From the NCBI RefSeq assembly GCF_053078305.1, contig NZ_CP166879.1: a stretch of 64,000 nucleotides of DNA; one strand, written 5' to 3'. The translations under genes were made by a program, and so were the position numbers. A model generated the notes under the pieces. It was not told the origin of the DNA and ran no database searches. It was given only the letters and a program-made list of their open reading frames with translations. Below, in pieces: positions 693 to 33,294 of the stretch (its first letter is position 1; each line of letters begins with the position of its first letter).

Positions 693-2783
693 ATGCGAAT
701 AACCACTCTGGCTTCCGTAGTCATTCCCTGTCTCGGATTTTCAGCCAGCAGCATAGCTGCTGCAGAGGATGTGATGATTGTCTCGGCATCCGGCTATGAG
801 AAAAAGCTGACTAACGCAGCCGCCAGTGTTTCTGTGATTAGCCAGGAGGAATTGCAGTCCAGCCAGTACCACGATCTGGCGGAGGCTCTGAGATCAGTAG
901 AGGGTGTGGATGTTGAAAGTGGTACGGGTAAAACCGGTGGGCTGGAAATCAGCATCCGAGGAATGCCAGCCAGTTACACGCTGATACTGATTGATGGTGT
1001 TCGTCAGGGCGGAAGCAGTGACGTGACTCCCAACGGTTTTTCTGCCATGAATACCGGGTTCATGCCCCCTCTGGCCGCCATTGAGCGTATTGAGGTTATC
1101 AGGGGGCCGATGTCCACACTGTATGGCTCTGATGCGATGGGCGGTGTGGTGAATATCATTACCAGAAAGAATGCAGACAAATGGCTCTCTTCCGTCAATG
1201 CAGGGCTGAATCTGCAGGAAAGCAACAAATGGGGTAACAGCAGCCAGTTTAATTTCTGGAGCAGTGGTCCCCTTGTGGATGATTCTGTCAGCCTGCAGGT
1301 ACGCGGTAGCACACAACAGCGTCAGGGCTCATCGGTCACATCACTGAGCGATACAGCAGCCACGCGTATTCCTTATCCCACGGAGTCACAGAATTATAAT
1401 CTTGGTGCACGTCTTGACTGGAAGGTGTCGGAGCAGGATGTGCTCTGGTTTGATATGGATACCACCCGGCAGCGTTATGATAACCGGGATGGGCAACTGG
1501 GGAGTCTGACGGGGGGATATGACCGGACCCTGCGCTATGAGCGAAACAAAATTTCAGCTGGCTATGATCATACTTTCACCTTCGGAACATGGAAATCGTA
1601 TCTGAACTGGAACGAGACAGAAAATAAAGGTCGTGAGCTCGTACGCAGTGTACTGAAGCGCGACAAATGGGGGCTTGCCGGTCAGCCGCGGGAGCTTAAG
1701 GAATCGAACCTTATCCTGAATTCATTACTGCTTACCCCTCTGGGAGAATCTCATCTGGTTACGGTGGGGGGCGAGTTTCAGAGCTCGTCCATGAAAGACG
1801 GAGTTGTCCTTGCCAGCACAGGTGAAACTTTCCGGCAGAAAAGCTGGTCGGTATTTGCTGAGGATGAGTGGCATCTCACGGATGCACTTGCGCTGACTGC
1901 GGGCAGCCGCTATGAACATCATGAGCAATTCGGGGGACACTTCAGTCCGCGTGCATATCTGGTCTGGGATGTGGCAGATGCCTGGACGCTGAAAGGCGGT
2001 GTGACCACGGGATATAAGGCACCCAGAATGGGGCAGCTACATAAAGGGATTAGTGGTGTGTCCGGGCAGGGAAAAACAAATCTACTTGGTAACCCCGACC
2101 TGAAGCCGGAAGAGAGCGTCAGTTATGAGGCTGGGGTGTATTACGATAACCCCGCCGGTCTGAATGCCAATGTCACAGGTTTTATGACTGACTTCTCCAA
2201 CAAGATTGTCTCTTATTCCATAAATGATAACACCAATAGCTATGTAAACAGCGGAAAGGCCCGGTTGCACGGTGTGGAATTTGCCGGCACATTGCCGCTG
2301 TGGTCAGAGGATGTCACGCTGTCACTGAATTACACCTGGACCCGAAGTGAACAACGTGATGGTGATAACAAAGGTGCGCCGCTGAGTTATACCCCTGAAC
2401 ACATGGTGAATGCGAAACTGAACTGGCAGATCACCGAAGAGGTGGCATCATGGCTGGGTGCCCGTTATCGCGGGAAAACACCACGTTTCACCCAGAATTA
2501 TTCGTCACTGAGCGCTGTACAGAAGAAAGTGTATGATGAGAAAGGAGAATACCTGAAAGCCTGGACGGTGGTGGATGCAGGTCTGTCGTGGAAGATGACG
2601 GATGCCCTGACGCTGAATGCTGCGGTGAATAACCTGCTCAACAAGGATTACAGTGACGTGAGCCTGTTCAGTGCCGGTAAGAGTACGCTGTATGCCGGTG
2701 ATTACTTCCAGACGGGATCATCAACAACGGGATATGTGATACCTGAGCGAAATTACTGGATGTCGCTGAACTATCAGTTCTGA
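693..2783 (+). CDS. iha: TonB-dependent outer-membrane siderophore receptor / adhesin (IrgA-homologue adhesin-like), 696 aa
   Basis: Signal peptide, TonB-box/plug-like N-terminus, beta-barrel repeats, C-terminal ...YQF aromatic terminus; length and N-terminal sequence match my recollection of Iha. Not database-verified. Confidence 0.7.
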   Translation: MRITTLASVVIPCLGFSASSIAAAEDVMIVSASGYEKKLTNAAASVSVISQEELQSSQYHDLAEALRSVEGVDVESGTGKTGGLEISIRGMPASYTLILIDGVRQGGSSDVTPNGFSAMNTGFMPPLAAIERIEVIRGPMSTLYGSDAMGGVVNIITRKNADKWLSSVNAGLNLQESNKWGNSSQFNFWSSGPLVDDSVSLQVRGSTQQRQGSSVTSLSDTAATRIPYPTESQNYNLGARLDWKVSEQDVLWFDMDTTRQRYDNRDGQLGSLTGGYDRTLRYERNKISAGYDHTFTFGTWKSYLNWNETENKGRELVRSVLKRDKWGLAGQPRELKESNLILNSLLLTPLGESHLVTVGGEFQSSSMKDGVVLASTGETFRQKSWSVFAEDEWHLTDALALTAGSRYEHHEQFGGHFSPRAYLVWDVADAWTLKGGVTTGYKAPRMGQLHKGISGVSGQGKTNLLGNPDLKPEESVSYEAGVYYDNPAGLNANVTGFMTDFSNKIVSYSINDNTNSYVNSGKARLHGVEFAGTLPLWSEDVTLSLNYTWTRSEQRDGDNKGAPLSYTPEHMVNAKLNWQITEEVASWLGARYRGKTPRFTQNYSSLSAVQKKVYDEKGEYLKAWTVVDAGLSWKMTDALTLNAAVNNLLNKDYSDVSLFSAGKSTLYAGDYFQTGSSTTGYVIPERNYWMSLNYQF

Positions 2784-2815
2784 TAATAACAAAACGCTAT
2801 CACTGACGGTAGAAT

Positions 2816-2854
2816 ACGTTGCCACTGCAACTCCTGGCGGAACAGTGGCAACGT
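2816..2854 (+). terminator. 12-bp perfect inverted repeat (acgttgccactg ... cagtggcaacgt) just downstream of the iha-like stop; possible terminator or REP-like hairpin
   Basis: Inverted repeat read directly; no clear T-tract follows, so terminator function is uncertain. Confidence 0.35.
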
Positions 2855-3429
2855 ATTAGGTTAAGTGCATTTCCGATCCGCTAATGAGATTTCGTTACCA
2901 ACAACTAATATCGTCACAGGAAATGCACGGATTATTTTTAACTTATCATTTACATACTTGTCCAGAGTGTAAGCGCACCGTGAAGGACGAGGGGTAAAAA
3001 TTAGTTTACAGAGAGAGTGACGTTCCAGGGCAACAACTCTTTCATGCGGTTGGCAGGCCAGGTGTTGATTACACTGATCACGTGGCGTAGCCACGTTTCC
3101 GGCTCGATTCCGTTAAGTTTTGCAGCTACCGATCAGGCTGTACATCACTGCCGCACTATCGCTCGTCATCTCAAAGTCCGGTCTCGTCAGCAGGAAGGTA
3201 TCATTCTCTCCCGCCATTTTTCCGGAAGCCCGGTCAGATAAGTCCCTTTGTCTATCGCTGACTCCTGGCTCATAACCCGGTTAGCAGAATGCAGGGTCAC
3301 CACCTCGCCACGACCGAATCCGGATAAGTCAATTGCACCTTCTCAATCGCCATTTTGTCACAATTAAGTTTGATAAAGCAGGTCACTGAGGTGTACTGGC
3401 AATAGCGGACACTACCATTTGTTCTTTTT

Positions 3430-4248
3430 TTAAGCAGCCATCTGATGATATTTTTCCCTGAAGGCTGCCGGGGAGATATTCCCCAGACGAGAGTGACGAC
3501 GCTGACGATTGTAGAAAATCTCAATGTATTCCCGTATTACTGAGATGGCCTCATCCCGGCTCTTAAAACGATAGTGGCTCAGGCTCTCATTTTTCAGCGT
3601 TCCCCAGAAGCTTTCCATCGGAGCGTAGTCGTAACAGTTACCTTTACGCGACATTGATGTTTTCAGACCAAACTGCTCCTGTATGACCCGGTAATCGTAT
3701 GCGCAGTACTGTGAACCTCGATCGGAGTGGTGGATTAGCCCGGCAGGTGGGCGCTGGCTCCTGAGCGCCATAAACAGGGCTTTACCTGTCAGCTCTTTTG
3801 TCATGCGCTCTCCCATGGCGTAGCCGACAATTTCGCACGTATAAACATCTTTGATGCCAGCGAGGTACAACCATCCCTCCTGTGTGGCAACATACGTCAG
3901 GTCCGCCACCCAGACCTGATTTGGTGCTGTAGGAGCGAACGTCTGGTTCAGCAGATTTGGCGCAACTGGCAGATTGTGGTTCGAGTTCGTAGTCGCTCTG
4001 AACTTGCGTTTATGCTTACAGCGTAGCCTTAGCTCCTTACGAAGACGTGCCAGTCGGTCACGACCAACGATGATGCCATTCTCTGCCAGCTCCGTCTGGA
4101 GCCGCCGGGTTCCATATGTTTCGCGAGTGCGGATATGTGCCACCTTAATCTCCAGTTTTAGCCGCTCATCACTTTGTTTTCTGTCTGAGGGTTCATGCTG
4201 TACCCGGTTGTAATAACCGCTCCTGGATACACCAAATACCTGACACAT
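3430..4248 (-). CDS. IS600 OrfB (IS3-family transposase, DDE integrase core), 272 aa
   Basis: rve/DDE signature region (VWVADLTY...HSDRGSQY...); position inside the IS600 inverted repeats. Confidence 0.8.
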   Translation of the reverse strand: MCQVFGVSRSGYYNRVQHEPSDRKQSDERLKLEIKVAHIRTRETYGTRRLQTELAENGIIVGRDRLARLRKELRLRCKHKRKFRATTNSNHNLPVAPNLLNQTFAPTAPNQVWVADLTYVATQEGWLYLAGIKDVYTCEIVGYAMGERMTKELTGKALFMALRSQRPPAGLIHHSDRGSQYCAYDYRVIQEQFGLKTSMSRKGNCYDYAPMESFWGTLKNESLSHYRFKSRDEAISVIREYIEIFYNRQRRHSRLGNISPAAFREKYHQMAA

Positions 4249-4283
4249 CGCTTCAATGGGAAATTGTTGTCGCCATTGTTCGA

Positions 4284-4586
4284 TTAACGCGTATTTTTCA
4301 GCGACTCCTGTGCAAAATACGCTGTTGCTTTTTTTAATATATCTCGCTCAAGGCGAGCTTCATTTAACGCCTTACGCAGTTGCAGAATTTCAGATTCCAG
4401 TTCAGCCACCGTGCGGGAACCAGGAGTACCGAGCCCTTTTCTGGCGGCGGTAACCCATTGTCCTAAAGTGCCTTCAGGAAGAGATAATCGGGAAGCGCCT
4501 TCACTGATCGAAAGTTGATTTTCAAGAACCGTTCTGACAGCTTCGGCTTTGAACTCTTTAGAGTAACGTTGGGTTTTTCTGCTCAT
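4284..4586 (-). CDS. IS600 OrfA (IS3-family transposase HTH subunit), 100 aa
   Basis: Sequence MSRKTQRYSKEFKAEAVR... matches recalled IS600 OrfA; followed by OrfB. Confidence 0.8.
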   Translation of the reverse strand: MSRKTQRYSKEFKAEAVRTVLENQLSISEGASRLSLPEGTLGQWVTAARKGLGTPGSRTVAELESEILQLRKALNEARLERDILKKATAYFAQESLKNTR

Positions 4587-5071
4587 TATTAGCTCCTTCT
4601 GATGCCATTCTATTTCAGGAAGGAGTGTCCGTTAAACTCAGGCTACCTCACATCAGATGCCAACGCAACATTCCCTGCCATAAGCGCAGCCAGAACGCCT
4701 GTTACAACTAAACTATTCCTGGTGATATTGCTCATTCTCTTTCTCCATTTGTCGAGGATTTGGGCGTTGATTTTCGACGAGCTCCAGTTGCAACTCCAGT
4801 CTTAAGGTTATATCGGGATAGCACACAAGTGTTACACGCATAAACAAAAAATACCCAAAAAGTATTATTTCATAACATTTATTCATGGAAGATAACAATG
4901 AAACGATTCAGCTATATTTTTTAAACTAAAAAATACTTTATAAGAACATCCCAATTTTGGAGGCGATACTCATTCTCCCCCTGATAAATAAACACTCTCG
5001 TCCGACAGGGCGTGGAAACTATCAATAACCACAGTAATGATGCTGACTTTGTTTTCGTTTAAGGAAATGAC

Positions 5072-6628
5072 ATGCACGATTACCTGCTTTTTTTACTGGG
5101 ACTTACCCCCCTTCTGGCGATGATCATTTTGATTCTGAAAGTCAAAATGCCCATACACTATTCTGTGCTTAGCACTCTCCTGCTCACGCTAATCCTTGGA
5201 GGGGTTTTCTGGCAGACGCCAGTTATGGATATGGGATCTGCTGTGGTATACGGCGCAATCAAAGGTTTGTGGCCGATTGTGATTGTCATCCTTGCTGCCA
5301 TTTACAGCTATAACCTGATGAATGCGACAAAAAGCATGGATATTCTGAGAAATGTTCTAGCCAGCGTGAGCGATGATAAACGTATCCAGGTTCTTCTTAT
5401 CTCATGGTGTTTTGGCGGATTTCTTGAGGCGGCCGCCGGATACGGTACAGCGGTAGCAATCCCCATAGGTATACTCATTGCACTGGGCTTTAACCCACTA
5501 AAAGCAGCGATTGCATCACTGGTTGCTAATACAGTCCCTACAGCGTTTGGGGCAGTCGGTATACCTGTCTCCGTGCTTGCTGAACAAGTTAATTTACCTG
5601 TAACCACACTCAGCGGGACGATTATTCTTCAGCTGGCACTGTTCAACATTCTGCTCCCCTTCGTTATCGTCACGATTATCGGTGGAGGTATGAAAGCTAT
5701 ACGAGGCGTAGGGTTAATTACCCTGATGTGCGGTATTAGCACATTGATACCTCAGTATCTGGTGGCTGTTAATCTTGGCGCAGAGCTCCCGGCTTTCGCA
5801 GGAAGTCTTGTCAGTCTGATCGTTATAGTCTTTATGGCAAAAAACCGTAAAGAAAAAACAGAACCTGAATTTCTTATTGAGAGTTCAGCAGATAGCGCCA
5901 GCGCACTTTCATACTCTCGTGGGGCGTTGTTACGTGCGTGCTCAATCTACATTCTGATCTTTCTGTTCATTCTGCTTTGCTCTCCACTGTTCCCGACGAT
6001 AAAAAGTGCAGTGTCTCAGATTGCCTCGTCACTCACCTTCTCTCTGAGTAACGGCAGCAATCTGTCGATGAAAATTGAATGGATCGCAACCCCCGGTGTT
6101 CTGATTATCATTGCCAGTGTTATTGGCGGCTTGATACAGAAAGCATCCCTGTCATGCCTGTTAAACGTATTTGTCAGCACGGTAAAACAACTTAAAAACT
6201 CCATTATTGCCATTTCTGCGATTGTTGCCATGGCAACGGTAATGGATGTCTGTGGGTTGATTGGCACTCTGGCACAGAGCCTTGTGGATCTGACTGGTGG
6301 GGCCTACCTCTTCATTGCTCCGGTTATCGGCGCTCTTGGTACATTTGTTACTGGTAGTGACACAAACTCCAACATTCTGTTTGGTAAATTGCAGACTACT
6401 GCGGCTGAAAAATTGCATGTGGACCCGCTCTGGCTGGCTGCCGCAAATACATCTGGCGCAACAGGCGGCAAAATGATTTCTCCTCAGAGTATTGCTATCG
6501 CTGTTTCAGCCACCCGTATGGATGGTCAGGGCAGCGTAATCATGTCAGGAACACTGAAGTACTGCTTTGCTTATATTGTTATTCTTGGACTGAAAGTAGG
6601 CCTTGTCTACCACCTGTTCATGGCCTGA
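5072..6628 (+). CDS. L-lactate permease family (LctP/LldP-like) transporter, 518 aa
   Basis: Polytopic membrane protein; conserved LctP blocks (GLWPI, CFGGFLEAAAGYG, TGSDTNSN, GGKMISPQSIAIA) recalled from LldP/GlcA. Confidence 0.75.
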   Translation: MHDYLLFLLGLTPLLAMIILILKVKMPIHYSVLSTLLLTLILGGVFWQTPVMDMGSAVVYGAIKGLWPIVIVILAAIYSYNLMNATKSMDILRNVLASVSDDKRIQVLLISWCFGGFLEAAAGYGTAVAIPIGILIALGFNPLKAAIASLVANTVPTAFGAVGIPVSVLAEQVNLPVTTLSGTIILQLALFNILLPFVIVTIIGGGMKAIRGVGLITLMCGISTLIPQYLVAVNLGAELPAFAGSLVSLIVIVFMAKNRKEKTEPEFLIESSADSASALSYSRGALLRACSIYILIFLFILLCSPLFPTIKSAVSQIASSLTFSLSNGSNLSMKIEWIATPGVLIIIASVIGGLIQKASLSCLLNVFVSTVKQLKNSIIAISAIVAMATVMDVCGLIGTLAQSLVDLTGGAYLFIAPVIGALGTFVTGSDTNSNILFGKLQTTAAEKLHVDPLWLAAANTSGATGGKMISPQSIAIAVSATRMDGQGSVIMSGTLKYCFAYIVILGLKVGLVYHLFMA

Positions 6629-6677
6629 GAAAAAACAACAAAAGGACGTGGAATATTAATCAACAGGAGAAATTTCT

Positions 6678-7397
6678 GTGAATGTTAACTTTTTCGTCAC
6701 CTGCATTGGTGATGCGTTTAAATCCCGGATGGCACAAAAGAGTGTGCTGTTACTGGAGCAATTGGGTTGCAATGTCCATTTCCCCGAAAAGCAGGGATGT
6801 TGTGGTCAGCCAGCGATAAATGGCGGTTATGTTCGTGATGCCATCCCGGGCATGAAAAATCTCATATCTTCGCTGGAAGAGAATGACTGGCCGGTAGTAT
6901 CTCCTGCCGGGTCATGCACTTACACGATAAAAAATTACGCTCGCTATCTCAGTGAAGAACCTGAGTGGGCGGCACGAGCTGAAAAAGTGGCTGAACGCCT
7001 GCATGATTTGACATCATTTATAGTAAATCATCTTGGCATCACAGATGTTGGGGCAAAACTCAATGGTCGCGCTGTGTACCATCCCTCCTGCAGCCTTTCC
7101 CGTAAGCTGGGTGTAACCAGAGAGCCGCTTTTGCTACTTGAGAATGTACAGGGGCTTGAGCTACTGCCGTTTCACGCTCAGGAAACGTGCTGCGGGTTTG
7201 GCGGCACATTCTCTGTAAAAATGGCGGAGATCTCTGGTGAAATGGTGAAAGAGAAAGTCGGGCATATTATGGATGTTAAACCTGATTTTCTTATCGGGGC
7301 TGACGCCAGTTGCCTGCTAAACATCGGCGGTCGGCTTAACCGTGAAGGGCATCCTGTAAAAGTGATGCATATTGCTGAAGTCCTGATGCACAGATGA
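6678..7397 (+). CDS. LutA/YkgE-like Fe-S oxidoreductase (cysteine-rich CCG-domain protein), 239 aa, GTG start
   Basis: Two CCG motifs (QGCCGQP, ETCCGFGG); size and order as in lutABC/ykgEFG operons. Confidence 0.75.
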   Translation: MNVNFFVTCIGDAFKSRMAQKSVLLLEQLGCNVHFPEKQGCCGQPAINGGYVRDAIPGMKNLISSLEENDWPVVSPAGSCTYTIKNYARYLSEEPEWAARAEKVAERLHDLTSFIVNHLGITDVGAKLNGRAVYHPSCSLSRKLGVTREPLLLLENVQGLELLPFHAQETCCGFGGTFSVKMAEISGEMVKEKVGHIMDVKPDFLIGADASCLLNIGGRLNREGHPVKVMHIAEVLMHR

Positions 7398-7407
7398 GGT
7401 AAACAGA

Positions 7408-8823
7408 ATGTCTTTGAAAACAAGTGATATCAGGTTTAAAGAGCGTATCCGTATTCAGATTCAGGACCCGATCATGCGAAAAGCTGTGGCTAACGCACAG
7501 GAGCGCATAGGGACTAATCGACAGAAAATGGTTGATGAACTGGGACACTGGGAGGAATGGCGTTCACGAGCTGAACAGATTCGTCGGCATGTTCTGGAAA
7601 ATCTTGATGCTTATTTGTATCAATTGTCCGAAAAGGTTACTGCGAATGGCGGGCATGTATATTTTGCCCGTACCAGAGAGGATGCAACCAGTTACATACT
7701 GAAGGTGGCGAAAGAAAAAAACGCCAGGAAGGTTGTTAAATCCAAATCAATGGTGACTGAGGAAATTGGCATGAATGCCGTTCTTCAGAAAGCCGGGATA
7801 CCCGTGATTGAAACGGACCTTGGGGAATATATTCTTCAGCTAGCACATGAGCCACCATCGCATGTGGTTGTGCCGGCAATACATAAAGATCGCCATCAAA
7901 TCCGCAGAGTTTTACATGAACATCTGGGGTATGACGGGCCTGAAACTCCAGAAGCAATGACATTGTTCATCCGTGAGAAAATCAGACAAGATTTTCTGAG
8001 TGCTGAAGTTGGCGTAACGGGGTGTAACTTTGCCGTTGCAGAAACAGGGTCAGTCTGCCTTGTTACAAACGAAGGCAACGCACGGATGTGCACCACATTA
8101 CCTAAAACACATATTGCTGTTATGGGTATGGAGCGTATTGCTCCGACATTCCAGGAGGTGGATGTTCTGATTACCATGCTTGCAAGGAGTGCTGTCGGGG
8201 CGAGACTGACAGGTTATAACACCTGGCTTACAGGCCCCAGAGAAGAAGGACATGTTGATGGTCCGGAAGAGTTCCATCTCGTTATTGTTGACAATGGGCG
8301 TTCAGAGATTCTCGGCTCAGAATTCAGCGATGTATTGCGATGTATCCGCTGCGGTGCCTGCATTAATACCTGCCCGGCTTATCGTCAGATTGGTGGGCAT
8401 GGTTATGGTTCAATCTACCCGGGGCCAATCGGCGCGGTTATTTCCCCATTGCTTGGTGGATATGAAGACTTTAAGGATTTACCCTATGCCTGCTCATTGT
8501 GCACTGCCTGCAATGGGGTATGTCCTGTAAAAATACCTCTGGCAACGCTAATACAAAAACATCGCCAGGTTATGGCAGAGTCTGAAATCACACCATTAAC
8601 GGAACGCCGTATAACCAGAGCATTCAATTACATAAACAGCCATCCGGCGTTGTGGAAGGTAGGTATGGTTGCTGGGGCCAAAACAGCCCGTCTGTTCATC
8701 AGGAAAGGAAAAACGCCGATTAGTGTTGGGGCGATAAAAGAATGGACTGAAGCCAGAGACCTGCCATCACCTGATGGAGAAAGCTTCCGTAGTTGGTTCA
8801 AGCGACATAAGAAGGAGGGGTAA
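7408..8823 (+). CDS. LutB/YkgF-like 4Fe-4S lactate-utilisation protein, 471 aa
   Basis: Two ferredoxin-type clusters (CIRCGACINTCP, CSLCTACNGVCP); follows the lutA-like gene with a 10-bp gap. Confidence 0.75.
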   Translation: MSLKTSDIRFKERIRIQIQDPIMRKAVANAQERIGTNRQKMVDELGHWEEWRSRAEQIRRHVLENLDAYLYQLSEKVTANGGHVYFARTREDATSYILKVAKEKNARKVVKSKSMVTEEIGMNAVLQKAGIPVIETDLGEYILQLAHEPPSHVVVPAIHKDRHQIRRVLHEHLGYDGPETPEAMTLFIREKIRQDFLSAEVGVTGCNFAVAETGSVCLVTNEGNARMCTTLPKTHIAVMGMERIAPTFQEVDVLITMLARSAVGARLTGYNTWLTGPREEGHVDGPEEFHLVIVDNGRSEILGSEFSDVLRCIRCGACINTCPAYRQIGGHGYGSIYPGPIGAVISPLLGGYEDFKDLPYACSLCTACNGVCPVKIPLATLIQKHRQVMAESEITPLTERRITRAFNYINSHPALWKVGMVAGAKTARLFIRKGKTPISVGAIKEWTEARDLPSPDGESFRSWFKRHKKEG

Positions 8824-8826
8824 TTT

Positions 8827-9525
8827 ATGGAAAACAGAGAGGAATTTCTCGTTGCGATCGCCAGAAAGCTTGGCAGACCAGTAAGACATATTCCCGAAGC
8901 AATGCCGGAGCCTGTAAATACGCTGGCTACGACACGTTTAACAGAGTTGACATCAGACCAACGCTGTGAGGCGTTTATTAAATTTGCCTCGGAAGTGATG
9001 CTTGCCGAGTGTGTTCTGGTGTCGCCTGAGAACGCACCATCAACAGCCTTAGACATCTGTTGGAAGTTCGGTTCCGGGCCAGTCATTATCAGCAACGATC
9101 AACGACTGGTCGATACAGGGATTACGCCATTGCTACAAAAAGAAATGGACGCTGCTCTGTGGGATCCGGAGAAGGGCGATGAAAATATCCATCTTGCTGA
9201 AAAGGCAAAAACTGGTGTCGTTTTCGCTGAGTATGGGCTGACAGAATCAGGAGGCATTGTCTTATTCTCCGCACCAGAACGTGGGCGCTCAGTAAGCCTT
9301 TTGCCTGAAGCATCATTATTTGTTTTACGTAAAAGCACCATTCTCCCCAGAGTGGCGCAGCTTGCGCAAAAACTTCATGATATGGCTCAGGAAGGACAAC
9401 GGATGCCGTCCTGTATAAATCTGATTGGAGGCCCAAGTTCTACTGCAGATATAGAACTGATCAAAGTTGTTGGCGTACATGGTCCTGTACATGCAACCTA
9501 TTTGATCATTGATGATTGCGATTAA
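8827..9525 (+). CDS. LutC/YkgG-like lactate-utilisation protein, 232 aa
   Basis: Size and position completing the three-gene lutABC-like set; start 4 bp after the lutB-like stop. Confidence 0.65.
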   Translation: MENREEFLVAIARKLGRPVRHIPEAMPEPVNTLATTRLTELTSDQRCEAFIKFASEVMLAECVLVSPENAPSTALDICWKFGSGPVIISNDQRLVDTGITPLLQKEMDAALWDPEKGDENIHLAEKAKTGVVFAEYGLTESGGIVLFSAPERGRSVSLLPEASLFVLRKSTILPRVAQLAQKLHDMAQEGQRMPSCINLIGGPSSTADIELIKVVGVHGPVHATYLIIDDCD

Positions 9526-9618
9526 CGATTGCTAATAAAAAAATGGCCTTAAGGTGATATTTCGTCTTGTGAAAAGGCAACAATAGACTAAAGGTTAGGC
9601 ATAATTGTGTTTCTTTAT

Positions 9619-9649
9619 GCCTCCGCAGCAATTTGTGGAGGCTTTTTTG
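9619..9649 (+). terminator. Rho-independent terminator after the lactate module
   Basis: GC-rich hairpin gcctcc-(loop)-ggaggc followed by TTTTTTG. Confidence 0.6.
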
Positions 9650-9730
9650 CTTACTCCAAACAGTTTGGCTTCTTGAAAAAGTCATATCCCAAACCTATTG
9701 ACGCTTATAAAAAAGTAAAGAATGGTGAGT

Positions 9731-9792
9731 AAGCGTAAACTGACCACCGTATGTAGCCATGATGCCAGTATTGGTAACGTAGGTGCACCCCT
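9731..9792. repeat. Solo IS66-family terminal-repeat remnant (copy 1)
   Basis: GTAAGCGTAAACTGACCACCGTATGTAGCCATGATGCCAGTATTGGTAACGTAGGTGCACCC is near-identical to the orfA-side end of the IS66-family element at 21737..21798. Confidence 0.6.
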
Positions 9793-9861
9793 ATCTATTT
9801 TTGTAGAACCGGAGGAAACAGACCAGATAGTTTAAATGAGCTGGTTATACGTAACATAATT

Positions 9862-9893
9862 GTAAGCGTAAACTGACCGCCGTATGTAGCCAT
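9862..9893. repeat. Solo IS66-family terminal-repeat remnant (copy 2, shorter)
   Basis: GTAAGCGTAAACTGACCGCCGTATGTAGCCAT repeated 131 bp downstream of copy 1, same orientation. Confidence 0.55.
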
Positions 9894-9981
9894 CAGACGA
9901 AAATTGGTAACTTAGACGCCCATCTGATATAGACGGACATCTAAGTATGGAATTACATGAACCGCCCCGGAAATCCTGGAG

Positions 9982-10212
9982 ACATCTGGCCACCCTGATT
10001 CCTTCCCGTAACAACTGACGCCAGACTTTACGCACATCGTATACGCACGGTATCTTTTTCTTCAGCCAGTCATCACGCTGCGCACGGGCATTGCGTTTAT
10101 CAGGATGATGTCGCTGTTGCTGACAGTGGTAATACGTTGACGGGGCAATATGCAGTTCACTGCATACCGGTCCGATCCCGTACTGCTCACGCGACTTATC
10201 CAGCAGTGGCAT
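9982..10212 (-). pseudogene. IS629 orfB, 5' 77 codons only (deletion derivative)
   Basis: MPLLDK...GIRVARC matches the IS629 OrfB N-terminus; the reading frame then runs into the inverted-repeat sequence. Confidence 0.7.
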
Positions 10213-10538
10213 TATTTTTTCCAGGGGCGGTCGAACTCCGCCTTCGCAAAATAAGTGGAAGCCTGGCGAAGGATATCGTTACTGCGGCTCAGTTCACGAT
10301 TTTCACGTTCCAGCTCTTTCAGACGCTGACGTTCAGTGGTGGTGAAACCACCATCACCGCCCCCAATATCCTGCTCATGCTGGAGTACCCAGACGTGCAG
10401 AGTCTCCGGTGTACAGCCAATCTTAGGGGCAATAGAACAAATTGCTGTCCATTGTGAGTCATATTCGCCCTGACTTTCCAGAACCATACGAACTGCCCGT
10501 TGACGGACTTCGGGGGAAAAACGTGTATTTTTAGTCAT
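10212..10538 (-). CDS. IS629 OrfA (IS3-family transposase HTH subunit), 108 aa
   Basis: MTKNTRFSPEVRQRAVRMVLESQGEYDSQW... matches recalled IS629/IS1203 OrfA. Confidence 0.8.
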   Translation of the reverse strand: MTKNTRFSPEVRQRAVRMVLESQGEYDSQWTAICSIAPKIGCTPETLHVWVLQHEQDIGGGDGGFTTTERQRLKELERENRELSRSNDILRQASTYFAKAEFDRPWKK

Positions 10539-10752
10539 CCTGTTTACCTCTTTCTCAGGGAGTTTAGTCTCCAGGATTTCCGGGGCGGTTTAACGTTTAT
10601 AACAACTCCGACCATTCAAAATGGCCGGCGGGGTATAAATCCCTATCAATTTAACATTATCTCATTTGACATGAATAACGCCGTTTATCTATTTGTTGCC
10701 CTTTAGCTAGTTCATAGCAACCTAGAAAAATTTATTCGTTGCAATATAAATG

Positions 10753-12300
10753 CTACTTGCGTAGCGATAAAATTGCCCGTGCGGTTTCAGCACGGTTATA
10801 GATCTGCATTTTTTTTATTGCAGCATCCACATCTTCACCGCTTTTCTTATTCAGTTTAATCAGAAACTCAACAGGTAATAGCGAAGCTAAATTTTCAAAT
10901 TTTGATTCAGACCAAGTAATGGTTGCAACAGCCCCTTCAGTTCTCTTAATCATTAGTTTTTTAAGTAATTCTAAACGCTCTGGCTCAACAGTTATATAAC
11001 CAATCGGCAGGGTTAATGCACTATCAGAATTAGGTTGACCGTGGTATTGCACCAAAGCAATCACATCAGGAATTAAGAGGATCTCCAAACGATCAAATTT
11101 AGCCTCTGAAGTAAGGCCAATACCGGTAGGAAAACGACCTAAGTGCCGCTTACGCTCTTGACGTTTTTCACCTTCATCTGCACTTGAGTGTAAAAGCGAA
11201 ATGCGAGCAATCTTATCATCGGCATAATTGCCAAGTATATCGCCTAGAGCGCGAGTAAAACGCGAAAGTTGACTACCATTAGCTCCCCACAGTGGTACTT
11301 TACTGCTATACCACAGCGCTTTTGGAGCTGTTTTACCTATATAATCACGTAATGCATTATGCAACATACTAATGAACAGCTTAGAATTGTGCGGCAAATA
11401 AACAGCCCCTAACATGCCGGTAGTCAATGAAGTACCGTAGCCAGTTTTACGTTGTTCACGAGCCTCTATCCAGCCGGAATAGTTGAACTTATAACCATTA
11501 GCAAATTGTAACAACACTTTATCATTTGCTAGTTTACAGAAATCTTCACAGTCGATACCGAATTCATCTAGTTTATGTTCTCCCAAAAAATCTGCGATAT
11601 GAGCTTCCAGCTCGTTTGAAAGCGGCAGCCGGGTGTTACCTAAATATTCATAGGAACGAGTAAATTTCTGCGGCTCAATGCTCCCAGCAGAAACACCGTA
11701 GCTAACCTCTATCTCTATTGGGAGCTGCACCATCTCATGCGAACTACAGCCCATTATCTTATATAATTTAGTCCGTTGACGCTCATACTCGCTGTTGCGG
11801 CTGAGCAAAAGATGGTGCCGAAACTGGGAACTAAAAGCCTCTGTTACCGCAGCAGCATCTCCCCCGATCTGATGCCGCGGCAATAGCTCTGGCAGTCCAG
11901 AAGTAAAACGACGATTTGGTTGCGGTTTACATATCGAAAGAGTTAGTAGATCGAATGCAACTTCCTCCGTACATTCTTGATATTTAACTAAACTTGGCTT
12001 CCCACCATTATTAGCTGCATGCTTACGTAGGAATGAGCTAGCCTCAATATGCCCATCAGGATTAATGTTGATCAGTCTGTTAGCCAGCAACCCATCAAGC
12101 AATACCTCTCGCTCACGATCAGTTAGACCAAAGTAATTCTGTAACTCGCTGGGATAGAGTTGATCAAAAATCAGCAGCAAGCGACATGCAAACTGTTCAA
12201 TTCCAGGCATCAGTTTTTCAGTGGTCAAAGCGCAGTTGATCTTGTAACTACGCGCAGGTAGTAAAACGGTAATCAGATTACCCAGACGTGGTTCTGACAT
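10753..12300 (-). CDS. Hypothetical 515-aa protein, partner of the NERD-kinase-helicase gene; no motif recognised
   Basis: Long ORF in low-GC DNA; its ATG overlaps the upstream stop (TAATG) indicating translational coupling. No TM segments, P-loop, HKD, HEPN or other signature seen by eye. Confidence 0.7.
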   Translation of the reverse strand: MSEPRLGNLITVLLPARSYKINCALTTEKLMPGIEQFACRLLLIFDQLYPSELQNYFGLTDREREVLLDGLLANRLININPDGHIEASSFLRKHAANNGGKPSLVKYQECTEEVAFDLLTLSICKPQPNRRFTSGLPELLPRHQIGGDAAAVTEAFSSQFRHHLLLSRNSEYERQRTKLYKIMGCSSHEMVQLPIEIEVSYGVSAGSIEPQKFTRSYEYLGNTRLPLSNELEAHIADFLGEHKLDEFGIDCEDFCKLANDKVLLQFANGYKFNYSGWIEAREQRKTGYGTSLTTGMLGAVYLPHNSKLFISMLHNALRDYIGKTAPKALWYSSKVPLWGANGSQLSRFTRALGDILGNYADDKIARISLLHSSADEGEKRQERKRHLGRFPTGIGLTSEAKFDRLEILLIPDVIALVQYHGQPNSDSALTLPIGYITVEPERLELLKKLMIKRTEGAVATITWSESKFENLASLLPVEFLIKLNKKSGEDVDAAIKKMQIYNRAETARAILSLRK

Positions 12301-15300
12301 TAGTTGTTATCTCCAAGCAGACTTTGACCACACAGGATTTGGTAGTTGGGTTCATCTACTGCAACCTGTTTACTAATAAATTCATGAACGTTTCCAAGTG
12401 CTGAATCATTATTGGTCTTTGACCACATACGCCTTGCTCCCAGAATCAATAACCTTTCTTGAGCTCGCGAAATAGCAACGTTTATTCGCGGCGCGTCGCG
12501 CAGGAAACCTTGTAGTTTGTTGGGATTATCGCGAACCAGACTGAGGATAATTATCTTGTTTTCCTGGCCCTGATATGAATCAACGGTATCGATCTTGATC
12601 AAACCACGTAACGATGCAGCCCATTCAGCCCGACTGATAGCATTGTCAATTTCCTCTTTTTGCTGACGATACATTGTGATTATACCAATAGGATATGGCT
12701 GTTCTGTGGTAATAGTTTGCTCAAGCTGTGCAATGCAGCCATCACTCGACAATGACTGCAAAGCCTCTAGCAGTAGCCGGACTTCTCGTTGATTATAGTA
12801 ACGACCATTACCCTTATGTTCTTCTGCACCTGCTTCATTAGGGCTCGAACTATCGATCCAAGTAACAGTTTTGTTCCAAGGGATTGGTAACTTGGAATAC
12901 CAATCTGGCGAGACTTTCCTCGATGAATGCAGTTTACCGATATCTTGAGCGTAAAAGCACTCCGATACTAACTCGCCAATTGGTTCTACCATTCGATATT
13001 GAGTATCGAGTGTTACGCCGCCTGTTGCTTTAAAAGCACGTTCAAAATCAGACTCATAAAAGATCCCTTTCCCGAGTTCTAATTTCTTAGAGGCTAACTT
13101 AAGATGCTGTTGATGATAGAATGGTGGCAATTGTTTATGATCCCCTACCAACAGCACCCGCTTGCCTGATTGCAGCGCTACCATCAATTCAGCAGCTTGT
13201 GCTCGGCCAGCCTCATCAACTATTACCCAATCAAAGCTGGACTCAGCTAGTTCTAGTCGACGATTCCCAACACCAACAAGAGTTCCACAAACCAATCGCT
13301 TACTTTTGAACATAAATCGATCAAATCCAGCCTCGCCGCCGCGTAATACATCCATCCACTCTTGGCTCATTTCCAATAGCTGCATAAAACGTTCAAGGTT
13401 CTCTGGATTGTTATAATTGTATTGTATGGCAACTTGCTCAGCCAACTGTCTTATCAAGGTTTCATCATAGACAAGAGTTTTCAGCAAGCTGTCATCGAAT
13501 ATTGAGTTAATAATTTCTTGTGTTCGCAGTTTAAGCTGATTGCTTTGTTCTAATAATTCAGCCAGTCGCTCTTGATGACTAATACTACTACTCTTTATTT
13601 GTTCTACTTTATCCAGCTCACGGCTATATTGGCCATATGTCACCATCAAGGGATTCAGCGTACGATGTAACTGACATAACTGTTGGACTAATAATGGGGC
13701 CATCCCTAGGCGCTTTCCTAGGGAGCTAACTCGCAGATCATATTCACGGTGAAATTTATGCTGAATCTGTCGCTGAAGAGCTTTAGTTGCAACACTTAGC
13801 ATACCCTCATCAATCATAAGTTCATTACCAATACGTACTGTATCCAGTTCCATTCCTTTCGTATGGCAGAGCTCTCGAGCCTTGATGGCTACATTATCAA
13901 CAGAGGCATGGGATTGCCCGACCAAAAGAATGTTATTCACACCGCAATGTTGATACAGATAGTGAATAAATTTTGAAATAAATGTTGTTTTACCTGTTCC
14001 AGGTGGTCCCTGCAGAACTCCAACTGGTCCAAACTCGACCAACTGTTGAAATGCCATTAGCTGCTGTTCATTAAAACGTTGTCCAGGCTGATCATAAAGT
14101 GCGCGTAATGTCTCCGCGGATGGCCGCGGTTGCATTTGCTGCATGCAGGGTTTCTGGTGGTAATCAAAATACTGTGGCAGATGCTGGATCTCTGCTTTGT
14201 TTTCAATTACCCGTTGAAGGGCTCTTTGACGCAACTCTCTTGATGATTTGTCACGGATCGATTCCAATTGTAGCTGGCTGCCGCTACTAATTCGCTTACG
14301 AGCAGCATCAAAATCAAAGCGAATAGCCAATAGACTCGGCGTAGTCTCACTTAGCTGCAATTCCCCTAATTGCACTGATTCACGCTTATCTTTAATATAA
14401 ACAATGATCTTATCATCAAGTTCAAAGCTGAGGTCAGCACCGGATTCCGTAGTATATGGGTAGAGTAAGCAACCACTCGGTGATTCCTGAAAGTCAGTAG
14501 AGTCGATGTTGACTATATCTCGTAGGTCTACTTCTGTATCAGATAATGCCTGCCATAACTCAATTGGGCTTGACTCACTACTATCGAAGTCATCTTCATC
14601 CATCTCTTGATTAGGATTAGCTCGCTCAATGATGGCATCAATTACTGGCTCGAGGTTAAACAGTAGTTCAATAAAAGTATTACGCTGATTAAGTGAGCCA
14701 CGTTGTAATGAAAGTTGAGTATTAATTTTAGCCTGGGAATATTTACCAGCCTTTATACTTTCTTCGATCGATAATCCTTTTTCATACACTATTCTATTAA
14801 TAGTGCGATTATCAGGATCTAAGTCTATCAATAGCCGCTCTCCTAGGCCAGTGATGTAACAACGCAATTCATGCGCAAAGCGTGGGTTAGATGACCAGTT
14901 ACATTGAAAATAATAGATCCCATCATTTTGTTCTAGAAGCTTCACTTCTTGCGGCCAATCATCTGTGCCCCAGCAAACAGGAATTACCTTATCCTGTGAC
15001 TCAGACGCCACAACTTGATTAATCTCAGCTTGTTCCGGTGCTCGAATTGACTGCAGCAAAGGATCGAGCGCGATAGGTATACCGTCAACGGTTTGTTTTG
15101 CGCGTTCTAGCTCAGCCTGCACCAGTACTGGCATATCTTCACTAAATAGCTCCTCCACCATACGATATACTGCAAAGCAATCTCGCCCAAAAGCATCAGT
15201 ACTTTCGGGATTCTCTGGCTGGTAGCGATTATCTGCAGTTAATTCATCACTGAATTCAAGCAATCCAATCAGAGTAATTACTGTCTGCTCCCCGACTTGT

Positions 15301-17258
15301 ACCAGCAGTTTCTCTGGGCAAAGATCTCCATGAGGTAACTGCTTTTCATGAAAAGCATGAATGGTGTTGATCAACTTTTCCGCAATTGTAAAACGTTGGG
15401 ATTGTACTAACACGTTCTCAGCAATAAACTGTGACCACGGTAGGCCATCCACATACTCGCTCACTACATACAAGCCGCCTTGTCCTAATAGTCCATAGGA
15501 CTGCACCTTAGGAGTTGGCAGATTTATATGCGTAAGCTTATCGATCCGTTGCTTAAAAGCGTGGATACGGCGGTTAACACCAGGTTGTTGAGGGGTCAAA
15601 ATAACACCATCCCACAATTTTACCTGCAGAGCTTTCCCACCTTGTTCACAGTGATAACTGATGCTGCCAGTCGTAGCAATAGCAGCAAGAGCAGAGTAAA
15701 CCATAGACAACTGTTCAGGAAGTGGAGGAAACTCAATTAACACACCAACGCTGTTCATCCCTTCGCGAAAGAATTTGTTTTGCTTTAATTCTTGATAAAT
15801 CTGGTTAGCTTCATCAAATTCTTGGCTATGTTCCTTAGTAGCTGCATTAAACTCATTGAGCATTATGTCCGCACGTGGAAAGCGTTTACTTGGCTCAAGG
15901 TTAAGAGCTTGCTCAAACCAGCTATTTAGAATACCGCTAAAAGGATCAGTTAATGGAGCTCTCCATTCAGGCATCTGTCCAGGAGTCAGTAATGATTCAC
16001 CTGCAAAACAAATACGATAAGCAATTACAGCCAACATGAATACATCTAGGCGATAGGGCTCAACTGCTTCTTCAAAAGCATCTTCGGGCAAAATATATGG
16101 AGCACTTTGCAATGTCGGACGCAATGACTCTAGGCTATTATGTCCCTCCAGTGAGGCTGCGCCAAAGCCAGTAACGACAATGCTCTTCTGATCCCCTGCG
16201 TACCATAGATTGTGCGGGTCAATATCACAATGACTGATACCCAAGCTATGTAATTCCGAGAATGGAGCTAATAATGCACGAACGCGATCAATACGCTCAG
16301 ATTTACTCCATCCGTCAGCTTCGCTATCTAGAATCTCATCTAATCGGCTAAAACTACGGCGTAACTCATACAGCTCACGGGCATCATCAGTTATATCCTC
16401 CTCGGATAGTTCCCTTACAGCACGCAACATATAATCCTGCATAGTTGCGCTGCCATGACGAACTAGGCGACCGACTCGAGTCTCACGCAGAGCTATCTCA
16501 GCCCACAATGTTTGCATTGCGTTTGCTACACCCAAGGCATCAAAGTTCCACTGCCGTAGCAGACCTCTGTGTTGACTATTGTCTTTGTGGGTAGCCCTGA
16601 ATTCGTTGTAGACCATGTGAGGGTGACTAAAGAATGGCTTATCGTTCGCAAGATAACCGCTTTCTTTTAGTGGCAAAGGCCTGACTTTTGGTCCTTCAAA
16701 GAAGGACTTAATTATAGGTAATGCCTCATCAGAATTTGGTCGAGGCTTTCCCCCTTCAAAAAGATGAAAAAAGTTAGTGTGTTGCACCAGCTTTTCGTAA
16801 TTTTTTGGGTTACCTATAGTCAAGAATTCATCACGGGTATGAACATAGCGCCTCTCACTTAATGGCAAGTTTTCAGGACCAGCTGTGCCACACAGCACTA
16901 CATGAGCCTCAACATGCAAAAAGTAACCCAGCTTACGAGATAACTCTTCCTGCAACAAATCTTTTAGTCGCAGTGCATGCTCACGCTTGATCTGATAGGG
17001 ACTTTTGCCTCGTGACTTACCATTTTGCAGCCACTTCCCCCCTTCAAATGTGATGTTACCATTCCACTCTTTAAGCTCGACTAATAGCAGACGGTCAGCA
17101 GTAATAATTAGCATATCGATTTCCATCGACCCTTGGCTATCAGTAACAACTAAGCCAGCATAGCCAAACCAACTATCTGGTAACTGCTTAACCATCATAT
17201 CAACTGTTTTGGTTTCGCTGCGGTGCAGGCCAGCACCACCTACTATCTGATACTTCAC
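12300..17258 (-). CDS. 1652-aa multidomain protein: NERD (PD-(D/E)xK-like) domain, two protein-kinase-like domains, Upf1/DNA2-like SF1 helicase
   Basis: GTG start with GGAG about 9 nt upstream; NERD-like EIDMLIIT...LLVELKEW (aa 45-64); kinase-like catalytic loops HCDIDPHNLW (aa 343-352, then TGFGAA) and HGDLCPEKLLV (aa 643-653); helicase Walker A GPPGTGKTT (aa 1085-1093), Walker B VIVDEAGRA (aa 1345-1353), VGDHKQLPP, DSYQGQE, NVAISRAQERL. Confidence 0.75.
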   Translation of the reverse strand: MKYQIVGGAGLHRSETKTVDMMVKQLPDSWFGYAGLVVTDSQGSMEIDMLIITADRLLLVELKEWNGNITFEGGKWLQNGKSRGKSPYQIKREHALRLKDLLQEELSRKLGYFLHVEAHVVLCGTAGPENLPLSERRYVHTRDEFLTIGNPKNYEKLVQHTNFFHLFEGGKPRPNSDEALPIIKSFFEGPKVRPLPLKESGYLANDKPFFSHPHMVYNEFRATHKDNSQHRGLLRQWNFDALGVANAMQTLWAEIALRETRVGRLVRHGSATMQDYMLRAVRELSEEDITDDARELYELRRSFSRLDEILDSEADGWSKSERIDRVRALLAPFSELHSLGISHCDIDPHNLWYAGDQKSIVVTGFGAASLEGHNSLESLRPTLQSAPYILPEDAFEEAVEPYRLDVFMLAVIAYRICFAGESLLTPGQMPEWRAPLTDPFSGILNSWFEQALNLEPSKRFPRADIMLNEFNAATKEHSQEFDEANQIYQELKQNKFFREGMNSVGVLIEFPPLPEQLSMVYSALAAIATTGSISYHCEQGGKALQVKLWDGVILTPQQPGVNRRIHAFKQRIDKLTHINLPTPKVQSYGLLGQGGLYVVSEYVDGLPWSQFIAENVLVQSQRFTIAEKLINTIHAFHEKQLPHGDLCPEKLLVQVGEQTVITLIGLLEFSDELTADNRYQPENPESTDAFGRDCFAVYRMVEELFSEDMPVLVQAELERAKQTVDGIPIALDPLLQSIRAPEQAEINQVVASESQDKVIPVCWGTDDWPQEVKLLEQNDGIYYFQCNWSSNPRFAHELRCYITGLGERLLIDLDPDNRTINRIVYEKGLSIEESIKAGKYSQAKINTQLSLQRGSLNQRNTFIELLFNLEPVIDAIIERANPNQEMDEDDFDSSESSPIELWQALSDTEVDLRDIVNIDSTDFQESPSGCLLYPYTTESGADLSFELDDKIIVYIKDKRESVQLGELQLSETTPSLLAIRFDFDAARKRISSGSQLQLESIRDKSSRELRQRALQRVIENKAEIQHLPQYFDYHQKPCMQQMQPRPSAETLRALYDQPGQRFNEQQLMAFQQLVEFGPVGVLQGPPGTGKTTFISKFIHYLYQHCGVNNILLVGQSHASVDNVAIKARELCHTKGMELDTVRIGNELMIDEGMLSVATKALQRQIQHKFHREYDLRVSSLGKRLGMAPLLVQQLCQLHRTLNPLMVTYGQYSRELDKVEQIKSSSISHQERLAELLEQSNQLKLRTQEIINSIFDDSLLKTLVYDETLIRQLAEQVAIQYNYNNPENLERFMQLLEMSQEWMDVLRGGEAGFDRFMFKSKRLVCGTLVGVGNRRLELAESSFDWVIVDEAGRAQAAELMVALQSGKRVLLVGDHKQLPPFYHQQHLKLASKKLELGKGIFYESDFERAFKATGGVTLDTQYRMVEPIGELVSECFYAQDIGKLHSSRKVSPDWYSKLPIPWNKTVTWIDSSSPNEAGAEEHKGNGRYYNQREVRLLLEALQSLSSDGCIAQLEQTITTEQPYPIGIITMYRQQKEEIDNAISRAEWAASLRGLIKIDTVDSYQGQENKIIILSLVRDNPNKLQGFLRDAPRINVAISRAQERLLILGARRMWSKTNNDSALGNVHEFISKQVAVDEPNYQILCGQSLLGDNN

Positions 17259-17468
17259 GTTTTCTCCTGCACCACTAAATTTTTGTTGGTGGTAGTCCAG
17301 TAAAAATGGATGTAGTTATCTAAGACAGCGCATAGATTGTGCCTGCCTAACCCTAAAAAGTGTAATTATGAAAAGTAACGCTAGAAATTCTATACCGTTC
17401 GCAAAGAGAACACTTTTCAAAGATATATCATCATCTTGAACATGTCACTATAATGGTGAATCCATAAG

Positions 17469-17630
17469 ATGCGAACACCACATCTTGTGCCACTCAGCAA
17501 ACAGGCTGTAGCCATACTGATAAAACTTCAGACATGGGCAGTTGAAAATGGTCTGGTCTTTACGGGAGCACATGACCCGCGTAAACCAATCAGCGAAAAC
17601 ACCGTAAATAAGGCCCTTAGGTGCCCTTGA
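17469..17630 (+). pseudogene. Tyrosine-recombinase (phage integrase) C-terminal fragment, about 53 codons
   Basis: Translates to MRTPHLVPLSKQAVAILIKLQTWAVENGLVFTGAHDPRKPISENTVNKALRCP*, resembling the integrase segment around the catalytic region; no N-terminal part present. Confidence 0.35.
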
Positions 17631-17725
17631 ACCACTATATCCAGACAGCCGTTGAGCTTAAGTTAACGTTACCGAGTGACGTTGATATTCCCTCGGTGAG
17701 AGATAACCAAGGCACCATGAGGATG

Positions 17726-18353: not shown

Positions 18354-18459
18354 TCGGCAGGCGATAAAGAAGGTGTCGTTACGGGGAAGTCATCTTCACA
18401 GAGATTTTCAGTCAGTTAGCATTACCGACATTCATTCACCAACTTACCGGAGATAATCA

Positions 18460-19168: not shown

Positions 19169-19295
19169 AAAATAATGAATATCCGTATCCGGAGTGGTAT
19201 ACTCCCCTGTATGGATATCTCCGCTCTCAACACCACGAATGACATCGAAAAACTGCGTGCTATGGGTAAGCGTCAACGGAGCACCGTATTGACGC

Positions 19296-20909: not shown

Positions 20910-20939
20910 GACCGTTTTTATAATCCGGCCATGACATTT

Positions 20940-33279: not shown

Positions 33280-33294
33280 TCTGATAAACCTGAC

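Follow-up and report, generated by a model that had tools for sequence, protein, structure and literature searches.

Lactate is a nutrient that is supplied both by the host and by its microbiota. To our knowledge, every LutABC/LldEFG system characterised to date (B. subtilis, Shewanella, Campylobacter) oxidises L-lactate. The core YkgEFG proteins of E. coli have been established by experiment as a respiratory L-lactate dehydrogenase working with nitrate; lactate promotes the growth of Enterobacteriaceae in the inflamed gut, and deletion of core ykgEFG was without fitness phenotype in mouse colitis models (PMC9701030). EHEC apparently uses lactate in bovine intestinal content (PMC4041753). Accessory versions of these genes have been described in UPEC ST127, where lutP-lutABC-hsdMSR is accompanied by an integrase and by a fragment of a peptide-ABC-binding-protein gene at tRNA-Phe (PMC9769692), and in plasmid pFec10, the lactate cluster of which associates LctP, Dld and ykgEFG (PMC7984374).

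The window analysed here is the whole stretch of 64,000 nucleotides, numbered from its first letter. Between 3387 and 10592 it displays, in this order, a complete IS600, a gene for a permease of the LctP family, three genes resembling lutA, lutB and lutC, and a 635-bp deletion derivative of an IS629/IS1203-like element. The IS600, the permease, the lutABC-like genes and the IS629 relic that the initial annotation had named were all found, almost exactly where it had placed them. The features of the region are as follows.

693-2783, plus strand: iha, siderophore receptor/adhesin (Pfam TonB_dep_Rec/Plug)
3387-4650, minus strand: IS600, complete, 1264 bp (rve/HTH_Tnp_1 ORFs)
4651-4735, minus strand: 85-nt 5' fragment of an oppA-like peptide-binding-protein gene (28 codons, signal peptide)
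4736-5071, plus strand: AT-rich region upstream of lctP, presumed promoter/leader
5072-6628, plus strand: lctP, lactate permease of the LctP family (TC 2.A.14), 518 aa
6678-7397, plus strand: lutA/ykgE-like subunit, two CCG cysteine-rich domains, GTG start
7408-8823, plus strand: lutB/ykgF/lldF-like iron-sulfur subunit, LUD + Fer4 + LutB_C
8827-9525, plus strand: lutC/ykgG-like subunit, LUD domain
9619-9652, plus strand: intrinsic terminator of the operon, 10-bp stem (6 G-C pairs), then TTTTTTGCTT
9729-9960, no strand assigned: two terminal-repeat relics of the IS66 family (9729-9782 and 9862-9915), direct repeat D1
9958-10592, minus strand: IS629/IS1203-like element with an internal/3' deletion, 635 bp

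With gaps of 49, 10 and 3 nt between them and a terminator after the last, lctP, lutA, lutB and lutC make up a four-gene operon with its own ribosome-binding sites; that of lctP, AAGGAA, lies 7 nt ahead of the ATG. Upstream of lctP there is a lone weak sigma-70-like match (4841-4868), promoter-like matches being no commoner there than in shuffled sequence, and no convincing CRP, FNR, PdhR/LldR, ArcA or NarL site was seen in that region. Rfam gave no element besides the IS3 ALIL pseudoknot, and none in 4736-5071. No regulator gene consistently adjoins lctP-lutABC in ten Enterobacterales loci, and none is linked to the operon here.

The permease matches Pfam Lactate_perm over its full length (E=4e-129, residues 7-510) and, with 407.5 bits, passes the cut-off of NCBIfam TIGR00795 (341). 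Against the LldP and GlcA equivalogs it reaches 270 and 242 bits, where the cut-offs are 918 (NF007740) and 1121 bits (NF007249). Since it falls below both and is 34% identical to LldP of strain GPEC1176, it belongs to a separate LctP subfamily, orthologous neither to LldP nor to GlcA. Adjacent to it, the Pfam domains at 6678-9525 follow the LutABC architecture: a CCG protein, a protein combining LUD, two [4Fe-4S] and LutB_C domains, and a LUD protein. LutB scores 723.6 bits against TIGR00273 (equivalog cut-off 444.8) and has two CxxCxxCxxxC motifs at positions identical to those of core YkgF, while in LutA nine of nine cysteines and both CCG motifs are conserved at the positions that they occupy in core YkgE. 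Neither for LutB nor for LctP did a sequence search reveal a relative in the PDB.

Such a set of proteins would allow the following process: the permease would import lactate, and the iron-sulfur enzyme would convert L-lactate to pyruvate, delivering the electrons into the respiratory chain. As the module carries its own transporter, it could act without help from the core loci lldPRD and ykgEFG. We infer this oxidation from the sequence, and likewise the substrate, its stereospecificity, the electron acceptor and the way in which the module is regulated. If the module acted instead on D-lactate, glycolate or some other 2-hydroxy acid, this would explain why it has been retained beside the core L-lactate systems, and both the distance of the permease from LldP and GlcA and the modest identity of LutC to YkgG (65%) go in this direction. 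We nevertheless hold it to be unlikely: LutB stands far above the LutB/LldF cut-off, and the characterised LutABC/LldEFG systems that we know of share L-lactate as their substrate. The same is true of E. coli YkgEFG (PMC9701030).

The module, which we continue to read as a route for L-lactate, has the three-gene order, the domains and the cysteine motifs of core YkgEFG, its LutA, LutB and LutC being 77, 83 and 65% identical to YkgE, YkgF and YkgG (about 71% identity at the nucleotide level). Unlike it, core ykgEFG, located between rclR and ykgH, has no permease beside it, and the module is distinguished by its accessory distribution and by a lower GC content at the third codon position (GC3), 41-47% where the core lactate genes have 49-67%. 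The lldPRD locus also couples a lactate permease to an enzyme oxidising L-lactate, but LldD is an unrelated flavoenzyme, LldP is the distant homologue mentioned above, and the locus has its own regulator, LldR. The presence of core genes was looked up in GPEC1176, taken as a proxy for the source genome of the window: it is the closest complete genome, 100% identical over 3000-21583, while the maximum coverage of 9001-34000 by any complete E. coli genome is 66%. It harbours an identical module together with lldPRD and with core ykgEFG, adjoining rclR/ykgH. The proposal that the operon is an extra, horizontally acquired capacity is thus borne out, as it is both foreign and additional to the core genes. 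Indeed, it is far from being the sole ykgEFG locus, placed in the core with conserved synteny: of 5426 complete E. coli genomes, 204 carry it intact, in varied contexts, and about 5129 have core ykgEFG.

The intact lctP-lutABC block was also found on 66 plasmids (64 from Escherichia, 2 from Salmonella), 63 of which are predicted to be conjugative and one of which also carries ehxA and espP; close homology (at least 90%) of the plasmid alleles to the window begins only at 5023. Integrases adjoin the module in GPEC1176 and in KOr019. Patchy distribution, atypical GC3, integrases, insertion sequences and conjugative plasmids make of the module ordinary pathogenicity-island cargo, as previously noted by others. 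Six diverged alleles have all four genes intact, and for nearly all gene pairs dN/dS is 0.03-0.12 at a dS of 0.2-0.5, which implies long-term purifying selection on the module. It is a xenologous extra copy, horizontally acquired and maintained by purifying selection.

This has to be weighed against the view that the operon is redundant passenger DNA, decaying and without present function in cells that already possess LldP/LldD, Dld and YkgEFG. Roughly 600 genomes retain a truncated lctP alone, as a fragment of 0.5-1 kb, so that the module is often dispensable; those inspected were of the UPEC type (Nissle, ST131), and in both loci inspected (n=2) the fragment lies between iha and sat. Redundancy is also made possible by the silent phenotype of the core ykgEFG mutant in mice (PMC9701030), and the lack of a linked regulator fits with it. 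This would hardly account for four frames that have stayed open in six alleles under the constraint just described, for the conservation of the cysteine ligands, or for the upkeep of the module on conjugative plasmids and in several islands, and we find it quite unlikely. Altogether, it is probable that we are dealing with an acquired lctP-lutABC operon, kept by purifying selection and equipped with its own transporter, which would oxidise L-lactate and of which the flanking insertion sequences are scars.

The link with iha invites a further, more speculative proposal. This gene is annotated in GPEC1176, S19-651, Nissle and DETEC-S586, with the module or its relic downstream in each case. It is possible, if doubtful, that the iha-type island ancestrally included a self-contained unit for lactate uptake and respiration, which was kept, under strong purifying selection, in STEC, APEC and bovine-associated lineages and on ehxA/espP plasmids and lost in UPEC of group B2. 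If so, the module would serve the colonisation of particular niches and, far from being redundant cargo, would be a metabolic trait inherited along with adhesin and toxin islands; it could, for example, permit the respiration of lactate in the gut of ruminants or birds under anaerobic conditions, with core lldPRD repressed. A second, transporter-equipped operon that accompanies adhesin islands and virulence plasmids might contribute to explaining how LEE-negative STEC and avian strains adapt to a reservoir or niche; the module would serve as a simple genetic marker, and its repeated decay in UPEC would provide a natural contrast. The gene family, the likely chemistry and the existence of an accessory copy are already known, and until a phenotype has been demonstrated these observations are of incremental value. 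Lactate genes are mentioned neither in the LAA island paper nor in its supplements, and our literature search found no relevant paper tying pO113 or iha islands to a lactate permease.

How the module moves is a separate matter. The initial annotation had likened the region to a composite transposon, in which IS600 and the IS629 relic would mobilise the lactate genes as one unit. There are indeed IS3-family elements on both sides, less than 500 bp from the operon, and the relic retains both of its terminal repeats. The two elements are nevertheless different and recognised by different transposases, that on the right having no intact transposase, and the triplets that flank the whole unit do not match (CAC before 3387, ACG after 10592). 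The block does not travel with its flanks: among the 204 carriers, IS600 is found in about 17 and the right-hand relic in about 11, both flanks being common to about a dozen, in which the right-hand neighbourhood is shared as well. In other places the operon is bordered by an integrase, an IS110 relic, ISEc38, IS66, hsdRSM or plasmid genes. With neither a same or compatible pair of insertion sequences, nor a target-site duplication, nor recurrence in unrelated contexts, a composite transposon is extremely improbable and was rejected.

What does recur in different contexts is a unit oppA'-lctP-lutABC (window 4649-9861), in most cases with hsdRSM behind it and in many with a link to iha; elsewhere the unit lies between an integrase or an IS110 relic and hsdRSM, or on plasmids beside unrelated insertion sequences. 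In strain S19-651 (locus L091), hsdRSM stands downstream of the unit, as it does in L002, and a truncated hsdR is found in L092. The junctions with L091 (window 2500-3386 corresponding to 8501-9386, and 4649-9861 to 12947-18159) associate the arrival of IS600 with the loss of 3.56 kb, still present in S19-651. The element has terminal inverted repeats TGAGGTGTACTGG.../TGAGGTAGCCTGA... and is annotated in the identical GPEC1176 sequence (RefSeq) as 'IS3-like element IS600 family transposase'; the triplets on its two sides, CAC and CAT, differ, so there is no matching target duplication. A simple insertion of IS600 was rejected on the evidence of the replaced 3.56 kb, and this replacement also speaks against the composite transposon. 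On the other side, perfect 24-nt inverted repeats at both ends of 9958-10592, an ALIL frameshift pseudoknot at 10141-10257 and 90-94% identity to the first ~610 bp of IS629/IS1203-type elements identify an internally deleted element of this kind, which lacks most of its transposase gene. We can therefore understand IS600 and the IS629-like relic as later, lineage-specific rearrangement scars at the edges of the module, and not as its vehicle.

The order lctP-lutABC is widespread in Enterobacterales, with LctP identities of 65-86%, and the operons of Serratia sp. PAMC26656, Edwardsiella, Pectobacterium, Samsonia and Proteus have the same four-gene order and spacing as the module. The nearest relative is that of Serratia sp. 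PAMC26656 (86, 87, 91 and 84% amino-acid identity), and nothing closer appeared among 100,044 species genomes or in a set of 5.8 billion proteins; none of the Enterobacterales loci is close enough to be the donor, and their neighbouring genes vary by species. Plasmid pFec10 is another case in which a plasmid brings E. coli a second copy of lactate-utilisation genes, but the YkgE of pFec10 is 94% identical to the core protein and dld is included (PMC7984374). With 77% identity in YkgE and no dld, the module described here represents an independent acquisition.

The ST127 module (PMC9769692) is the same as that of the window, with a gene order matching KOr019 and S19-651. The window departs from it in that IS66 and IS629 relics and a different defence-like gene pair have taken the place of hsdRSM, that the oppA fragment has been trimmed by IS600, and that the island lies between ulaE and ulaD. 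Two items of the region had been absent from the initial annotation, the oppA-like 5' fragment and the IS66-type terminal-repeat relics. The first, at 4651-4735, translates as MSNITRNSLVVTGVLAALMAGNVALASD; it has no counterpart beside lctP in any Enterobacterales locus fetched, and longer versions (51-53 codons), annotated as pseudogenes, are present in L002, L091, L092 and L094. This fragment accompanies the module and is a remnant of the donor context. As for the IS66 relics, homology to the hsdRSM-linked arrangement ends at 9861, and in plasmid L003 the sequence matching window 9860-9960 is the end of an IS66 element.

An ORF listing and Pfam and NCBIfam scans established the order of the genes in and around the lactate block; completed with the oppA fragment, the terminator and the IS66-type relics, it is the following:

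693-2783, iha
3387-4650, minus strand, complete IS600
4651-4735, minus strand, 85-nt 5' fragment of an oppA-like gene
5072-6628, lctP, gene of an LctP-family permease
6678-7397, lutA/ykgE-like gene (CCG domain)
7408-8823, lutB/ykgF-like gene (LUD/4Fe-4S)
8827-9525, lutC/ykgG-like gene (LUD domain)
9619-9652, strong intrinsic terminator, downstream of the four lactate genes
9729-9782 and 9862-9915, two IS66-type terminal-repeat relics
9958-10592, IS629/IS1203-like relic (IS3 family)

The elements named in the initial annotation (IS600, the permease, the lutA, lutB and lutC-like genes and the IS3-family relic) are all found in these scans, and to them must be added the oppA fragment, both IS66-type relics and a match of window 9860-9960 to the end of an IS66 element on a plasmid (L003), which it had not listed. 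The gaps between the four lactate genes are of 49, 10 and 3 nt and, considered together with the terminator, lead us to understand lctP-lutABC as one operon. For LutB the NCBIfam score is 724 bits, with the cut-off of the LutB/LldF equivalog at 445; the permease lies above the LctP subfamily cut-off and far under those of the LldP and GlcA equivalogs. All the cluster-binding cysteines of core YkgE and YkgF are kept in the module proteins. The relic on the right matches the first ~610 bp of IS629/IS1203 elements at 90-94% identity. About half of its length is gone, but its 24-nt terminal repeats are perfect and the ALIL frameshift pseudoknot is still there; a full-length copy could in principle mobilise it in trans.

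The window is E. coli DNA. The nearest complete genome, GPEC1176, is 100% identical to it over 3000-21583 and diverges beyond, and none of the complete E. coli genomes was found to carry the whole window. In GPEC1176, where the core loci were looked for, the module exists alongside both ykgEFG, at its usual site in the rclR/ykgH interval, and lldPRD. Its proteins share 77, 83 and 65% identity with YkgE, YkgF and YkgG, and the permease only 34% with LldP. Core ykgEFG is present in about 5129 of 5426 complete genomes, with about 71% DNA identity to the module, which is itself intact in 204 of the 5426 (90-100% identity, chromosomal and plasmid-borne). Its third-codon-position GC (GC3) is 41-47%, and that of the core lactate genes 49-67%. 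This coexistence, divergence, prevalence and lower GC3 bear out one half of the first interpretation, that of an accessory, horizontally acquired, additional copy.

The other half, which likened the block between its two insertion sequences to a composite transposon, has to be abandoned. Junction mapping delineates a recurrent unit, window 4649-9861, running from the oppA fragment through the upstream region and lctP-lutABC to 335 bp further downstream, which is common to strains KOr019, S19-651 and RM14516 and does not travel with the flanking elements of the window: on its right are hsdR-hsdS-hsdM in KOr019 and S19-651 and merely a truncated hsdR adjoining ISEc8 in RM14516, and on its left an integrase, an IS110 relic or ISEc38. 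In the plasmid alleles close homology (at least 90%) is limited to 5023-9530, with other neighbours again: one plasmid has an IS3-family element and IS66 there, another a papB-like regulator gene with an IS3 fragment. The sequence that borders the window's IS600 on the left runs on in S19-651 for 3.56 kb more before reaching the oppA fragment, so that in the window IS600 has taken the place of that segment. The two flanking elements are different, no intact transposase remains in the right one, and the triplets flanking IS600 (CAC/CAT) do not match. Among the genomes listed, no more than about 11 share the right-hand IS629-like relic and about 17 the left-hand IS600; those with both also have the downstream neighbourhood in common, which indicates common descent rather than independent transposition.

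The module is cargo of integrase-bearing islands, as in GPEC1176 and KOr019 (see also PMC9769692). It is also found on 66 plasmids, 63 of them predicted to be conjugative, with 64 coming from Escherichia (E. fergusonii included) and 2 from Salmonella; one such plasmid carries ehxA and espP, another is a colicin Ia plasmid. The linkage of iha with the module is old. In the two loci inspected, of Nissle 1917 type and of DETEC-S586, iha is followed by the same 3.5 kb segment as in S19-651, then by an IS110 relic or transposase fragment, a truncated lctP (L093 7011-7520 and L094 6683-7970, respectively, in the iha-sat interval), an IS3-family element and sat; DETEC-S586 retains the oppA fragment as well. 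In about 600 complete genomes, ST131 and CFT073-like strains among them, only such a 0.5-1 kb lctP remnant is left.

Six alleles were compared (window, KOr019, RM14516, two plasmids and Escherichia sp. MOD1-EC7003), and in each the four frames are intact and identical in length. Pairwise dS is mostly 0.2-0.5, several-fold above the divergence typical of E. coli core genes, the exceptions being lutC against two alleles, with nearly no substitutions; dN/dS is 0.03-0.12. These values indicate long-term purifying selection on the module. Within 5072-9525, dS of one allele pair varies up to 40-fold from gene to gene; between the window and MOD1-EC7003 it falls from 0.25 in lctP through 0.14 and 0.04 to 0.006 in lutC. 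Such variation points to recombination inside the operon, between lineages of alleles. The lctP-lutABC order is common in Enterobacterales; the species representatives that come closest are Edwardsiella, Pectobacterium, Samsonia, Serratia marcescens and Citrobacter (LctP only 73-79%, LutB only 80-85% identity), and in none of the fetched loci does oppA lie beside lctP. The nearest proteins anywhere are those of Serratia sp. PAMC26656 (86, 87, 91 and 84%), where the operon adjoins other island-like genes; with 84-91% as the best identity, no donor species can be named.

LutABC of B. subtilis and LldEFG of Shewanella are known to oxidise L-lactate. For YkgEFG of E. coli this was shown with nitrate (PMC9701030). 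By homology, the permease would import lactate and LutABC would convert L-lactate to pyruvate, passing the electrons on to the respiratory chain; it is on this likeness that a substrate and a physiological role are assigned to the module. Whereas the core ykgEFG locus has no dedicated transporter, the module has its own permease, which would make it self-contained. Neither a linked regulator, nor a recognisable operator, nor an RNA element was found for it. The module genes are already annotated in RefSeq, and this accessory region (integrase, oppA fragment, permease, lutABC, hsdMSR) has been described as a lineage-specific feature of UPEC ST127, with no functional tests (PMC9769692); the second ykgEFG copy of plasmid pFec10 is a different one (PMC7984374), and the LAA island paper makes no mention of lactate genes. 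What is added here is the recurrent unit with its junctions, the prevalence of intact module and relic, the iha linkage with decay in UPEC-type strains, carriage by conjugative plasmids, and the signs of long-term purifying selection.

Where other strains carry hsdRSM, the window has a two-gene unit (10753-17258, minus strand), which, from this position, looks like a swapped defence cassette. Its 1652-aa protein joins a NERD nuclease-related domain with a protein-kinase-like region and an SF1 helicase (AAA_11/AAA_12), and gives sub-threshold NCBIfam matches to three anti-phage proteins, MADS6 kinase, PLuB helicase and PglW; its 515-aa protein has no family match. The annotation of SCU-106 splits the large gene in two (NERD and DEAD/DEAH helicase). 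Divergence from GPEC1176 begins just ahead of a two-partner secretion locus (24166-35571, minus strand) that encodes a ShlB/FhaC-type transporter and a 3037-aa exoprotein with hemagglutinin repeats and a PT-VENN pre-toxin domain (CdiA-like). Beyond it lies an Ag43/AIDA-type autotransporter (48420-51617); for two long plus-strand ORFs of the island, 46122-47141 (339 aa) and 51732-54254 (840 aa), Pfam gave no family at E<=1e-5. The 64-kb window contains no tRNA gene, and the whole island lies within the L-ascorbate (ula) operon, an unusual integration site for an iha/Ag43/TPS island: the right end of the window (~60225-63138) has ulaD, ulaC, ulaB and ulaA, and the left island end in GPEC1176 (L001 2464-4635) has ulaF, ulaE (annotated as 816 nt) and a tyrosine integrase, so that the insertion would split ulaABCD from ulaEF.
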